Assembly (NCBI GenBank): GCA_963783305.1
Contig: CAWAMW010000002.1
Span: forward strand, 800,001-864,000
Origin: an uncultured Gemmatimonadales bacterium
GTDB lineage: Bacteria > Gemmatimonadota > Gemmatimonadetes > Longimicrobiales > RSA9
Length of the DNA: 64,000 bases
Direction: 5' to 3'
Shown here: in pieces, positions 39,001 through 48,000 of the stretch
How positions within the stretch are numbered: position 1 is the stretch's first letter
Layout: each line of letters begins with the position of its first letter
Position numbers: made by a program

Positions 39001-42000
39001 TCCTGGAATCGCCGTCCACCGACGAGCCGGTGGGCGCGGTGATCGTCGAGCCGATCCAGGGGAGAGCGGGGATCCGGGTGCCGCCAGCAGGATTCCTGGG
39101 CGCGCTTCGGGATCTGTGCACGGAGCTCGGAGTGATCCTGATCCTGGACGAGATCTATACGGGCCTCGGCCGGACCGGGCGCTGGTTCGCCTGCCAGTAC
39201 GAGGACGTGGTCCCCGACCTCCTGGTCATCGGCAAGTCTCTCGGCGGTGGGCTGCCGTTGAGCGCCGTGCTGGGCTCGCGGGAGGTGATGGACGGATGGC
39301 CGGGCTCGGAGGGTGAGGCCATCCACACCAGCACGTTCCTCGGGAACCCCGTCGCGTGCGCGGCCGCCCTGGCGCAGCTGCGGGTGATCGAGGAGCGGGG
39401 GCTGGTTCAGCGAGCCGAGCGCCTGGGCGGTCGCGTCGCGGATCGCCTGAACGCGTGGGTCGGGAGCCGGCCCTGGGCCGCCGCCCACCGGGGCCGGGGA
39501 CTGATGCGCGCGCTGGCGCTTGCCGGGCCGGAACCGGAGCAGCACGCGGCGGCCGCCGCCAGCGCGGCTCTGCGTCGTGGCGTAATCGTGCTCCCCGAGG
39601 GGGATGCGCTGGCACTCACGCCACCGCTCGTCATCACGGAGCGGCAGCTGGACCATTCGCTGGACGTGCTGGAGGAGGCGCTCAACGAGACCGGCGGTTA
39701 GCCCGGTCGTTCAATGCACGGCGTCGATGGTGCGGGCCAGATCGAAGTCCCGGCCGGTGAGACCGCCCTCGCTGTGGGTCGAAAGGGAGCAGGCCACACG
39801 ATCGAAGCGGATGTCGATGTCCGGGTGGTGGTCGGCCTTCTGTGCGACCTCCGCGATCCGATTGACGAAAGCGATCGCCTCGGGGAAGGTGTCGAGCGTA
39901 TACGTCTTTCGGATCACGTCCCCTTCACGGGTCCAGCCGCGGAGCTCATCCAGTCGTGTGCGGATCTCCTGGTCATCGAGCAATCTCATGCTGCCTCCGG
40001 ATAGGGACCTGCGGGGAACGGCTGCGTTCACGGCCCGCGAAGAGAGCAAGTCCGGAGCCGCGACCTCCAGGCGCTCCGGAACATTGCCTTTTCTCGGCGG
40101 CCCGACCACCTTACCCCACCCGTGACGGATTTGCTAATCACCGGCGCGACCGGCTTCGTCGGATCGCATCTCGTCGAAGCGCTGGCTCGTGGTGGTACCC
40201 GGGCCCGAGCGCTGGTGCGCCCGAGCAGTGACACCTCGCTGCTCGAGCGGCACGACATCACGCCGGTCATTGGCAGCCTCCAGGACGTAGACTCCCTCCG
40301 CCGTGCGCTGGGGGATGCCTCCGTCGTGGTTCACCTGGCGGCGGCGACCCGCGCCCTCACGGAGGCGGATTTCCATCGCGTGAACGCGCGCGGCACCGAG
40401 CGGCTGCTGGACGCGATGGAAGCGGATGGTGGGCGGCGGCGGATGGTGTACCTCAGCTCCCTGGCCGCGGTGGGCCCGACGCGGGGCCGCCCGGTGCGGC
40501 CGGACGATGACCCGCACCCGCTGACGCCGTACGGTAGGAGCAAGCTCGAGGGCGAGCGTGCGGCGCTCTCCCGGGAGGGCATGGACGTGGCGGTGCTGCG
40601 TCCGCCGGCGGTGTACGGCCCGCGGGACCGTGACCTGTTCACCTTCTTCAGGATGGCGCGATGGCATGTGCTGCCGACGGCGGGTCCTTCCGACCGGCCA
40701 ATGCAGCTCGTGTATGCGCCCGACCTGGCGGACGCGATCACGGCCGCGGCGGAACCCGGCGCGGCGACGGGGGTGTTCCACGTGGCCGAGCCGAGGGAGT
40801 ACCCGTGGTCGGAAGTGATCCGGCTGGTGGGCGCGGCCGTGGATCGCCGGACGGTGGTGGTGCGGGTGCCGGACGTGCTGGTGAAGGCGGCCGCGACGCT
40901 CACCGAGGCGCTGGCGCGGCGGGCGGGCAGAGCGGTTATCTTCGACCGCGCCAAGGCCCGGGAGCTACTCGCGCCCGGATGGACCTGTGAAACGGAATCT
41001 GCGCGGCTCGGACTCGGGTTCGAAGCGCCGACACCACTGGCGGAAGGTCTGGAGAAAACCGCACGGTGGTACAGGGCGAATGGCTGGCTTTGAGTCGTTG
41101 GAGCGATAGCTGGGGGGTCGATGAGTCTGTTCGATAAGTGCTACGGGTACACGACGGCCCGGGAGGTCGAGGCCACCGGGTACTACCCGTATTTCCGGGC
41201 CATCTCCGAATCGCATGACACGGAAGTGGTCGTGGAGGGTCACCGGAAGGTGATGGTCGGCTCCAACAATTACCTGGGGCTCACGCACCACCCCCGGGTG
41301 CTGGCCGCGGCGGAGGAGGCGCTGCGGCGGTATGGCAGCGGCTGCACCGGCAGCCGGTTCCTCAACGGCACCCTGGACCTGCACGAGCGTCTCGAGGACG
41401 AGCTCGCGGCGTTCCTCGGGAAGGAGTCGGCGCTCGTGTTCAGCACCGGTTTCCAGACGAACCTGGGCGTTATTGCGAGTCTGGCCGGGCGCGGGGACCA
41501 CATCTTCAGCGACAAGTTGAACCATGCCAGCATCGTGGATGGACTCCGCCTCTCCTACGGGGAGTCCCACCGCTACGGGCACGCGGACATGGAAGGGCTC
41601 GAGCGTCGGCTGAAGAGCGTGCCGGAGGAGGCGGGCAAGATGATCGTCACGGACGGCATCTTCTCCATGGAGGGTGACATCGCGCCGCTCCCGGCCATCA
41701 CCTCGCTGGCGAAGGTGCATGGCGCGAAGGTGGTGGTCGATGACGCGCACGCGTTCGGGGTCCTGGGTCGCACGGGAGCGGGCACGGCGGAGCACTTCGG
41801 CCTGGTAGACGAGGTGGACCTGATCGTGACCACGTTCTCGAAGTCGCTGGCGTCCATTGGGGGCGTGGTGGCCGGCCCCGAGGCGGTGATCCACTACCTG
41901 AAGCACCACGCGCGTCCGCTCATCTTCAGCGCGAGCATGCCGCCATCGGCGGTGGCGACCGTGCTGGCCGCGCTGGACGTGCTGAGGACGGAGCCGGAGC

Positions 42001-45000: not shown

Positions 45001-48000
45001 GGCCGGTCTCGTCCTGGCCGACTGGCTCCTGCCCGACGGGGACTGAGCCCGTGCTGGCGCCGCTATCGAGACGCCCATGCGCTGCCGGGAAAGGTGGAGG
45101 AAACCCACCAGCGCCGCGTGGCGATCCGGGCCCGAGCGACACGGTGGGTCCCGTACCGGATCCCGAGCGGCCGTTACCAGGGTTTTCCTTCCACAGCAGC
45201 GCCCCGACCGACGCCGTAACATCCCGGTGTACCGCCGCGCCCGACCGCGGTGAGGTGTGGAACCGGAACGACCATTGCGCGTACAATTCGTGGGGCCGGG
45301 GGGAACCGGCTCAAGCGCGCAGGCCGCCAAGGGGAGGAACAGGCCTATGATCCTGCGACTTTCGTTCGAAGAAATGACGGCGCTCAACTCCGCGGCGCAG
45401 CGGCTGTTCGACGCGACCGGTGGTGGGACCGTGCTGGCCCCGCCCGAGGCGATGGCGGAGCTGGAGTCCCGCCTTCCGCTGGAGGGCGACATCTCGGTAA
45501 AGACGCTGCCCGAGCAGTTCCGGCTGAGCGGTGCCGTCGCGATGATCCTCGACGACCTGAAGCTGCGCATGGACAGGTTCATCGTAGAGCAGTACGTGGG
45601 CTCCGAGGACGCGGTCAACGCGTACTTCGATTATGCCAACGTGCTCGCGGCCCAGGCGCGGCTCATGGGTCTCCGGCACGAGATGGAGGCCCTGGCGGAG
45701 ATCATGGCGGGCGACGATCCGGCCCAGCGACTGGAGGGGATCACGTTCCCGGATTGACCCGGTGCGCGCGGCGCGGGACCTTGATCGGCCGGACGATGGG
45801 GATCGTCCGGCCGATCGTACATTCAGGGGGGACGGAGCGACATGACGGATCCGAGCACGGAGACGGTGCTGATCACGGGCGCCTCGCGCGGTCTCGGTCG
45901 AGCGCTTGCCGAAGCGTTCGCGGCGGCGGGCGCGCGACTGGTTCTCTGCGCCCGGGGAGAACGTGACCTGCTGAAGGTGTCGGAATCGCTGGAGCGGAGC
46001 GGGGCGGAGGTGGAAGCGGGCGCGGCGGACGTGTCGAACGAGGCGGCCGTTGCGGCGCTGGTCGCACGAGCGGCGGAGCGGTTCGGCCCGATCAACACGC
46101 TGATCAACAACGCCTCCGTCCTGGGACCACGAGTCCCCCTCCGCGAACATTCAGGGTCGGAATGGCGGAAGGTGATCGATGTGAACCTCACGGGGACGCT
46201 CGTGCCGATCCTCGCGGTGCTCCCCGGAATGCGCGAGTGCGGCCGCGGCGCCATTATCAATGTGTCATCCGGGGTGGGGAACACGCCCCGGCAGCGGTGG
46301 GGTGCCTACGCCGTGAGCAAGTGGGGCGTTGAGGCGCTGTCGAAGAATCTGGCGCTGGAAGAGGAGGACGCCGGCATTCGCGTCAACATCGTGGATCCGG
46401 GTCGCCTTCGGACGGACATGCGGCGCGAAGCCTACCCTGACGAAGACCCGATGAAGCCGGCACCACCCGAGGCGGCGGTGCCCGTGTTCCTCTGGCTCGC
46501 TTCCGACCGGTCCCGCGGCGTCACCGGCAAGCGCTTCCGTGCCCTCGAATGGGCGGAATAGGGCCGCGATTTCGCCGTGCACGAAACCTGCACACCCGCA
46601 GGGACAACTCATTGCAAGGAGCCCGACCCATGAAGCGACTACGCGTTTTCACCCTCGTCGCACTGACCGCCTTCGTGGCCGTCGCGAGCGGCGCCTGTGC
46701 CCGCAACGTCATGCTGAACGAGGACGCCGGCCAGACCTACGCGGTGAACGTGATCAACCGGATGCCGCACGCCATGACCATCGCCTACGACGACGGGCAG
46801 ACCACCCGGCCGCTGGGCACGGTGGCGGCGGACCGGTCCGAGCGATTCGTGCTGGCCGCCGTGAGCGGCTCGACCATCACGCTGGTGGCCAGGGACGCGG
46901 CCGACACGCACACCGTGCGGAGGACGGTGACACTGTCTCCCGGCTCCACGGTGGACGTGGTGATCGACTGAATACCCGGCGCCACCTAGCGCAGGTGGCG
47001 CTCGAAGAGCTCCAGGATCCGGCGGTACTCGTCGGTCCAGGAGGCGGGTTCCTCGAAGGCGTGCCCTTCGACGGGGTAGACGGCGAGCTCCCAGTCCTCC
47101 TTGCCGAGCTCGATCAGCCGCTGTGCCAGGCGCACCACGTCCTGGAAATGGACGTTGGTGTCCACCATGCCGTGGGCGATGAGGAGCGGGTCCTCGAGCC
47201 CTTCCGCGAAGTAGATCGGTGAGGACCGGCGATAGGCCTCATCGTCGAACTGCGGCAGGTTCAGGATACGGCCGGTGTACCAGTGGTTGTAGTGCGCCCA
47301 GTCGGTCACGGACCGCAGCGCGGCGCCGGCTGCGAAGTGCTCGGCCTCGGTGAACAGCGCCATCAGGGTAATGAACCCGCCGTACGACCCGCCGTAGATC
47401 CCGATGCGCCCGGGGTCGACCCCCTCGACCTCGGCCAGGTACCGGGCGCCATCCACCTGGTCGGAGAGGTCCTTGCCGCCCATGTGCCTGTAAATGGCGG
47501 TCCGCCAATCTCTTCCGTAGCCTTCGGAGCCGCGGTAGTCGATGTCCAGCACCGTGTATCCCTTCGACGCCAGGAGGTGGTGGAACATGTACTCACGGTA
47601 ATAGCTGCTCCAGCCGCGGTGCACGTTCTGCAGGTAGCCGGCACCGTGGACAAAGATCACGCCCGCGCCGTTGGGAACGCCCCCGACGTCGGCAGGTCGA
47701 TAGATCCGGGCCGGCAGCGCGGCGCCATCGGACGCGGTGAACCGGACGATCTCGGGCTCGATCCAGGGGAAGCTGCTCCACTCCTCCGTGGGCGAGACCG
47801 TGAGGCGAGTCATGGGCGAGCCCGGACGGTTCCGCATCGCGTATAGCTCCGGCGGCGAGTTGGCCGTGGAGTAGATGGCGGCGAGCCGGTCTCCATCGGG
47901 CGACGGCGTGACATCCCAGATCCCCGGCCGATCCGTGATCCGCGTACGGTTTCCGCCACGAATCGGCATGGTGTAAAAGTGGTACTCGTGCGGCGAGGCC

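Follow-up and report, generated by a model that had tools for sequence, protein, structure and literature searches.

The window analysed here, a stretch of 64,000 nucleotides from an uncultured Gemmatimonadales bacterium, carries an operon that is predicted, with good support from homology, to make ceramide. Its last conserved gene encodes a PAP2_3 membrane enzyme that is likely an Aur1-like head-group transferase rather than a plain phosphatase. Judged by its sequence, this enzyme is a member of a separate family, here called PVxGP, and not of the BT_1522 type. Tentatively, and a little short of probable, we propose that the operon yields dihydroceramide, onto which PAP2_3 would transfer a phospho-head group; the most likely one is phosphoinositol, with phosphatidylinositol as its donor.

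The operon comprises a cerR-like gene, spt, a bCerS-like gene and the PAP2_3 gene, tightly packed on the plus strand. The preliminary description had recognized these genes as contiguous and had placed them at 40215..45046; the operon is indeed there, but that start trims 93 nt of cerR and that end takes in a CPBP gene left unnamed. The features are as follows:

39711..39992, minus strand: pterin-4a-carbinolamine dehydratase, divergent, at the 5' edge of the operon (PF01329 3.5e-30; NF002017 above cut-off)
40122..41093, plus strand: NAD-dependent epimerase/dehydratase, predicted ceramide reductase CerR (323 aa; Pfam Epimerase 4.9e-34)
41121..42302, plus strand: predicted serine palmitoyltransferase Spt (393 aa; top NCBIfam NF047600, 546 bits)
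42305..43453, plus strand: homologue of the GNAT-fold bacterial ceramide synthase bCerS/YghO (382 aa; Pfam GNAT 2.6e-7)
43446..44306, plus strand: PAP2_3 membrane enzyme, PVxGP subfamily, predicted Aur1-like fold (286 aa, TTG start inferred; PF14378 E 1.2e-18, in agreement with the 1e-18 given before)
44303..45046, plus strand: CPBP/Rce1-like intramembrane protease gene (PF02517 2.3e-15)

The genes are separated by gaps of 27 nt (cerR/spt) and 2 nt (spt/bCerS), followed by overlaps of 8 nt (bCerS/PAP2_3) and 4 nt (PAP2_3/CPBP). A promoter and terminator scan gave a signal at chance level. The CPBP gene is probably co-transcribed with the operon and lies outside the conserved module. Of 38 loci with bCerS directly upstream, 33 have it after PAP2_3, as do 3 of 31 other loci, and none was found in the spt-bCerS-cerR-PAP2_3 loci among 35 hand-picked class-level bCerS loci. 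As a lineage-limited neighbour, it was rejected as a module member. The genes for myo-inositol-phosphate synthase (MIPS) and PIP synthase (PIPS) were confirmed at C11:76721-78695, a contig other than the operon's; MIPS scored 572 bits against BT_1526 (PDB 7nwr), and PIPS had 5d92 as its top PDB match and 37% identity to a BT_1523-type protein of Prevotella.

For the ceramide genes, Spt scored highest in the PDB against the S. multivorum SPT (453 bits); the highest entry other than an SPT reached 315 bits, Kbl 279 and BioF 249. It is nearer to the characterised SPT than to BioF, Kbl or HemA, all at 315 bits or below. The bCerS homologue aligned over its full length with YghO of E. coli BL21 (34% over 367 aa, E 1e-72). 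CerR, 32% identical to the epimerase of the BL21 spt cluster, is the best match in the studied genome for both the BL21 and the B. finegoldii epimerases, and it is linked to spt and bCerS. The operon thus holds the best matches in this genome of all three BL21 cluster genes, which constitute a dihydroceramide set (PMC9386255). From homology and gene order, Spt would condense serine with acyl-CoA or acyl-ACP, bCerS would N-acylate, and CerR would reduce to give dihydroceramide. Ceramide synthesis, as claimed previously, is therefore well supported by homology and clustering. It is very unlikely that the operon instead yields another alpha-oxoamine-derived lipid (a sulfonolipid or a deoxy-base product) and no ceramide, or that it is silent. 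Spt does fall below the curated cut-off of NF047600 (546 vs 640 bits), a model built for the CFB group, CerR-type epimerases form a large family, and bCerS, with no match in the PDB or NCBIfam, had neither a family model nor a solved structure for comparison. These points are opposed by the 249 bits that Spt reaches against cysteate-C-fatty acyltransferase, far from its 453 bits to the solved SPT, by the BL21 set as a whole, and by the frames of the operon genes, which are all intact and conserved.

For the PAP2_3 protein, a single-sequence PDB search returned chance matches only, a profile search reached Aur1 weakly (E 3e-4), and the ESM Atlas matches were PAP2_3 clusters only. The predicted structure (pLDDT 93.6) had Aur1 as its top Foldseek matches, 9vj4 (TM 0.62, 291 columns) and then 9ivc, with LpxE at a TMq of 0.38. 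VIA aligned 259 residues with Aur1 (Z 17.6) and 161 with LpxE (Z 16.9); the Z scores tie, whereas the N-terminal helices are covered by Aur1 only. The triad H220/H259/D263, invariant in 108 homologues (alignment A1), is in register with H255/H294/D298 of Aur1, which are described as essential there in the excerpted text of PMC13133130. The match to PF01569 is limited to profile positions 43-123. A C1 K-x6-RP motif and a C3 Arg are the marks of PAP2 lipid phosphate phosphatases such as PgpB and LpxE. Both are absent from the PAP2_3 protein, whereas the C1/C3 basic residues are present in ordinary PAP2 proteins of the same genome and that of C3 in LpxE and PgpB. The full-length Aur1 match, the His-His-Asp triad and the missing phosphatase motifs together argue for a likely head-group transferase, on the strength of a structural model. 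This agrees with the Aur1 likeness proposed earlier and eases the accompanying worry that the gene might encode a phosphatase.

We consider it improbable that the protein is a hydrolase, either a phosphatase acting on ceramide phosphate or lipid phosphate or a sphingolipid-recycling, PLC-like diesterase, and no synthase. In their sources these proteins are named 'phosphatase PAP2 family', the triad is common to phosphatases, and LpxE ties with Aur1 on Z. R183, invariant in the Gemmatimonadota alignment, might bind a monoester; however, other members of the subfamily have Q, T, A, Y, H or N at this position. The linkage to synthesis genes in many gene orders also argues for a transferase, as do the full-length Aur1 architecture and the missing C1 and C3 residues.

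The preliminary description had assigned the transferase to the BT_1522 family, which did not hold. Against NF052609, the model for the BT_1522 PI-DHC synthase, it scored 26.4 bits with a cut-off of 480, compared with 394 for a true BT_1522-type protein of Prevotella and 141 for an Eisenbacteria relative. The BT_1522-type cluster setting (PIPS, PgpA, MIPS) is also missing, as MIPS and PIPS map to C11 and no match to BT_1525/PgpA was found in the studied genome. It is nearer to a paralogue linked to cerR in Bacteroidales, whose proteins scored 99-105 bits on profile A1, whereas the BT_1522 type scored 27. The only names that cluster look-ups gave for the cerR-linked PAP2 proteins were B. finegoldii, P. 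vulgatus and Bacteroides sp., and no report of their function was found in the literature searched. Prevotella F0039 and an Eisenbacteria genome (G251) each carry both types, which suggests different jobs. In a tree of 46 rows, two of which were dropped as non-homologous ORFs, a branch of 2.59 lies between the types, although this quick method without bootstrap does not settle the placement of the BT_1522 type.

We counted matches for bCerS, PAP2_3, MIPS and others in 251 genomes of the phylum. bCerS was matched in 160 (three of them weakly, about 1e-12), where 12 of 30 had been given before, and PAP2_3 in 134, all of which also had a bCerS match. The distance between the two was below 3 kb in 114 of the 126 genomes with both positions listed. 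Among the 35 hand-picked loci, 30 had adjoining spt and epimerase genes, three had bCerS alone, and two had bCerS divergent from PAP2_3; the previous statement that spt, bCerS and cerR occur together in 9 of 9 loci was thus too strong. The reported absence of the PAP2_3 gene in the other class is borne out by family f10 of the other class(es) (0 of 11 genomes). Additionally, spt, bCerS or the epimerase gene was present at 59 of 80 metagenome loci, which show eight or more gene orders and GC values of 0.30-0.74, and the link between PVxGP and ceramide genes recurs in Nonomuraea, B. finegoldii, Prevotella and Eisenbacteria. One genome (G222) has ceramide genes with no PVxGP match, and it is the only one of the 251 with a BT_1522-type gene.

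Regarding the head group, the mechanism of Aur1 suggests that PAP2_3 would act through a phospho-His259 intermediate, with Asp263 as the activating residue and release of diacylglycerol, and that His220 would activate the ceramide hydroxyl. On the donor side, PIP would come from the C11-encoded MIPS and PIPS. A PgpA-type PIP phosphatase was found in none of four Gemmatimonadota, and a phosphatase giving PI was not found. Inositol is the most likely head group because of two observations. Firstly, family f7 has bCerS and PAP2_3 in 15 of 16 genomes each, MIPS in 16 of 16, PIPS in 7 of 7 tested and Psd in 0 of 16; in one f7 genome (G080), no PssA was found among the three CDP-alcohol transferases. 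The gene is therefore kept where no PE route was found, which indicates that PE is not a general donor. Secondly, three genomes with ceramide genes (G041, G204 and G095) lack MIPS, PIPS and the operon copy of PAP2_3 together.

The co-loss is confined to these three genomes, and the family of G095, an unpublished genome, is without PAP2_3 anyway (0 of 3). G204 keeps a distant subfamily member without inositol genes, which counts against inositol. A further genome, G027, was rejected as an exception to the co-loss, as its PIPS is truncated by the end of a contig, beyond which MIPS would be expected. MIPS was also rejected as proof of inositol phosphoceramide: it is near-universal (222 of 251 genomes), so its co-occurrence with PAP2_3 says little; in family f5 it is present in 49 of 53 genomes and bCerS in only seven. 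Inositol genes were near only one of 49 long metagenome loci. Inositol phosphoceramide had previously been called the probable product; inositol is still ahead of any other single head group, though it does not quite reach probable, and MIPS and PIPS on their own are weak evidence.

A somewhat unlikely alternative retains the transferase chemistry but has a different donor, or a mixture of donors, in the form of PE or PG, to give ceramide phosphoethanolamine or phosphoglycerol, perhaps varying by lineage like the trypanosome SLS paralogues. PssA and PgsA are present in the studied genome, as are two Psd matches, and PG is available in all lineages checked. The closest named relatives are the cerR-linked Bacteroidales proteins, and both PAP2_3 types occur together in two genomes. 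According to the excerpted text of the respective sources, PE-DHC is present in all Bacteroides tested (PMC10191378) and survives deletion of BT_1522 in B. thetaiotaomicron, which removes PI-DHC (PMC9246714). On that account, a cerR-linked paralogue, if this species has one, is no stand-in for BT_1522. In 101 of 108 homologues, Phe immediately precedes the catalytic H259, and the excerpted text of PMC11796370 assigns Phe or Tyr at this position in trypanosome SLS enzymes to SM/EPC and Ser to IPC; however, Aur1 and the BT_1522 type both have His there, which this rule does not fit. PE as donor is opposed by the f7 genomes, which keep the gene without Psd (and, in G080, without PssA), and by G041 and G204, which keep Psd and have lost PAP2_3 with MIPS and PIPS. 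Phosphoinositol remains our preferred, tentative assignment.

More broadly, PVxGP may be a second widespread bacterial family of phosphosphingolipid synthases with a lineage-dependent donor, a speculative proposal that we hold less firmly than the inositol assignment. The donor would be inositol in Gemmatimonadota, and the cerR-linked member in gut Bacteroidales would be the missing ceramide phosphoethanolamine synthase, perhaps also the PI-DHC synthase in Phocaeicola vulgatus, which is without BT_1522. In soils and sediments, Gemmatimonadota are a common phylum. Given bCerS matches in 160 of 251 sampled genomes, the phylum would contribute environmental ceramides and phosphosphingolipids on a large scale that has gone unrecognised. 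Of greater use as a lead is the subfamily, as it singles out one gene, immediately 3' of cerR in Bacteroides and Prevotella, as a candidate ceramide phosphoethanolamine synthase. The ceramide pathway itself is known; the donor exclusion and this Bacteroides candidate are new. Gemmatimonadota were not found as ceramide makers in the literature searched, and the supplements of Stankeviciute et al. 2022 and of the Black Sea paper, outside that search, may list the phylum.

Compared with known systems, the operon has the same three enzyme types, likewise clustered, as the bacterial ceramide pathway of Caulobacter crescentus, E. coli BL21 (spt, yghO, ECD_02852) and B. fragilis (BF9343_4218/4240). 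Identities to the BL21 proteins are 41% for Spt, 34% for bCerS and 32% for CerR, and Spt is nearer to the Bacteroidota type. Here the aasR/acpR and lptFG paralogues of the known systems are lacking and a PAP2_3 gene is added. B. thetaiotaomicron BT_1522 is likewise a bacterial PAP2_3 protein with the triad, and both hosts have MIPS and PIPS (BT_1526- and BT_1523-like); however, the setting of the BT_1522 type is a PgpA-GtrA-PIPS cluster and its loop motif is PAAPPW, whereas the PVxGP type adjoins ceramide genes. The cerR-linked PAP2 proteins of Bacteroidales (B. finegoldii WP_237923849.1, Prevotella F0039, P. massiliensis and P. vulgatus) belong to the same subfamily (PVxGP, AFPSSH, VY..xHY..D), and in B. 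finegoldii and Prevotella F0039 the gene is directly 3' of a CerR-like epimerase gene; they are 26-28% identical to PAP2_3 and have Ala, not Phe, before the catalytic His. Saccharomyces Aur1, the catalytic subunit of IPC synthase (PDB 9vj4, 9ivc), is the best full-length fold match, with the same triad and without the C1/C3 basic residues of phosphatases, although identity is 16-18%, the loop motif here is PVxGP, and Phe stands where Aur1 has H293.

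The window (G000:C2:800001-864000, in the host genome G000) belongs to the Longimicrobiales lineage of Gemmatimonadota, in line with the names of its homologues. Five genes run along one strand, two of their junctions being gaps (27 and 2 nt) and two being overlaps (8 and 4 nt). The features of this region, in window positions unless another contig is named, were:

35576-37800: Omp85-domain protein, upstream of the operon
38382-39701: class III aminotransferase, upstream, its position kept in many Longimicrobiales loci
Upstream boundary of the five-gene run: pterin dehydratase, divergent
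40122-45046, + strand: NAD-dependent epimerase, class I/II PLP enzyme, GNAT protein, PAP2_3 protein and CPBP protein, in this order
45347-45757: 136-aa protein that matched neither Pfam nor NCBIfam, conserved behind the operon across many Longimicrobiales loci
C11:76721-78695 (another contig of G000): PIP synthase (PIPS) and myo-inositol-phosphate synthase (MIPS), side by side

We predict that the operon host very probably synthesises ceramide. The PLP enzyme scored 453 bits against the S. multivorum serine palmitoyltransferase (Spt), compared with 315 for the best non-SPT entry, 279 for Kbl, and 249 for BioF; its top NCBIfam model was NF047600 with 546 bits, below the cut-off of 640. We regard it as highly improbable that the operon makes no ceramide. 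The GNAT protein (bCerS) shared 34% identity across 367 aa with YghO of E. coli BL21, and the epimerase (cerR) shared 32% with the BL21 cluster epimerase, which are described as acyltransferase and reductase homologues in passages of PMC9386255. The best G000 match of each BL21 protein was the corresponding window gene. In the phylum tallies, which include G055, G155, and G180, bCerS matches occurred in 160 of 251 genomes (112/113 in family f4, 15/16 in f7, 7/53 in f5, and 11/37 in f2), and spt and the epimerase adjoined bCerS in 30 of 35 hand-picked class-level loci. Three loci of family f2, genus g5 (L054, L082, and L083), carried a solitary bCerS with spt and epimerase absent nearby. A second, distant bCerS-like GNAT of G000 (L038, C16:219738-220532) showed 25-29% identity.

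The ceramide pathway itself is known; a report from Gemmatimonadota was not found in the literature searched, and passages of PMC9969633 drew no link between the phylum and ceramide. Spt-like genes were described in 38 phyla by the Black Sea paper, the main text of which does not contain 'gemmatimonad' in either version, and Stankeviciute 2022 covered nine phyla according to an excerpt of PMC11334938. These surveys may already list Gemmatimonadota.

The PAP2_3 gene was closely tied to these genes. It matched in 134 of 251 phylum genomes, all 134 with a bCerS match, and lay within 3 kb of bCerS in 114 of the 126 genomes with both positions listed. Of 80 PAP2_3 loci in the genome-contig set, 57 extended 4.5 kb or more upstream and were used for neighbour counts: 41 had bCerS and Spt, seven bCerS only, one Spt only, and eight neither. 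A metagenome scan covered 6 of 64 parts, and the best 80 of 581 loci were taken; spt, bCerS, or epimerase was present in 59 of these 80, in at least eight gene orders with GC of 0.30-0.74, although the loci are not independent since many resemble Gemmatimonadota. Among the 49 of these best 80 that reached at least 6 kb, bCerS was found in 35, a weak PIPS-like match in one, and MIPS in none. Outside the phylum, spt, bCerS, cerR, and PAP2 were clustered in Nonomuraea gerenzanensis (L185:7376-12233), and Eisenbacteria provided another case. The Nonomuraea record has spt split over two overlapping frames, and many Nonomuraea species have related PAP2 proteins.

The preliminary description had placed the PAP2_3 protein in the BT_1522 family (NF052609, motif PAAPPW), which was wrong, as the model gave 26.4 bits against a cut-off of 480. 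Prevotella F0039 harbors two PAP2_3 proteins: one in a PgpA-GtrA-PIPS cluster (NF052609 394 bits, PAAPPW) and one after a CerR-like epimerase (motif PVxGP, no NF052609 match). The window protein's match to the latter had E 7e-20 over 307 aa; for the former, the values were E 7e-10 and 166 aa. The window-family profile scored 99-105 bits on cerR-linked Bacteroidales proteins, 99-134 on Nonomuraea, 27 on the BT_1522 type, and below 15 on ordinary PAP2s. In a quick tree, the BT_1522 type sat on a 2.59 branch with an attachment point that the tree did not settle. Eisenbacteria G251 has both types in one genome. The PVxGP type is a second, functionally uncharacterised family of Aur1-like enzymes.

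The predicted model of the PAP2_3 protein (pLDDT 93.6) retrieved Aur1 first with Foldseek (9vj4, TM 0.62, 291 columns; LpxE TMq 0.38) and with VIA (Z 17.6, rmsd 4.7, 259 aligned). LpxE reached in VIA a Z of 16.9, in effect equal to that of Aur1 (rmsd 2.8, 161 aligned); the N-terminal helices were covered by Aur1 only. H220, H259, and D263, invariant among 108 homologues, aligned with the Aur1 triad, which is essential according to passages of PMC13133130. R183 was invariant within Gemmatimonadota and variable elsewhere in the PVxGP subfamily. PAP2 phosphatases bind phosphomonoesters through basic residues (K-x6-RP and C3 Arg motifs); the window protein has neither, whereas other G000 PAP2 proteins have both, and we consider a hydrolase unlikely.

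An inositol head group, as first proposed, is plausible, yet we judge it slightly more likely wrong than right. In its favor, family f7 has the PAP2_3 gene in 15/16 genomes, MIPS in 16/16, PIPS in 7/7 tested, and Psd (PS decarboxylase) in 0/16; PssA was absent among three CDP-alcohol transferases of the f7 genome G080, and f7 may be a lineage without PE. Likewise, G041, G204, and G095 (the last an unpublished genome) have ceramide genes and lack MIPS, PIPS, and the operon PAP2_3 copy. MIPS was missing in only 2 of 113 f4 genomes, both within this set, a match to the loss of PAP2_3 that is suggestive only. G222, the one genome of 251 in which the BT_1522 type was found, has it instead of the PVxGP type. 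The apparent exception G027 was accounted for by a contig break.

Counted against inositol were the wide occurrence of MIPS (222/251 genomes), the coexistence of both types in two genomes, and a distant PVxGP-subfamily member retained in G204, where inositol genes are absent. In a portion of PMC9246714, BT_1522 deletion abolished PI-DHC and kept PE-DHC. Phe directly preceded H259 in 101/108 homologues; at that position it excludes IPC in trypanosomes, according to an excerpt of PMC11796370, although Aur1 has His there, unlike the trypanosome rule. PgpA was found in 0/4 Gemmatimonadota checked, and G000 can make PE; PG may also be the donor. Another or mixed donor is a real, if rather doubtful, alternative to inositol.

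Plasmids of Rubrobacter radiotolerans (L186:6701-12293) and a Streptomyces sp. (L187:6763-11289) carry spt-bCerS-cerR followed by an LTA-synthase-family and a condensation-domain gene, respectively, possibly other head-group enzymes in the same slot. In B. finegoldii (L189:5003-6966) and Prevotella F0039 (L190:3909-5921), the gene immediately after a CerR-like epimerase encodes a PAP2 of the PVxGP type, a candidate ceramide-phosphoethanolamine synthase; passages of papers from a literature search named no such synthase. In protein P0230, an LPG_synthase_TM (flippase-like) domain is fused to a PVxGP-type PAP2_3 domain. At loci such as L205, L206, L233, L268, and L273, PVxGP-subfamily members are preceded by a HAD-IB hydrolase; in two loci, a CDP-alcohol phosphatidyltransferase is also present, and the surroundings are free of ceramide genes. 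These loci may represent a self-contained head-group module, resembling the alternative Bacteroidetes inositol cluster.
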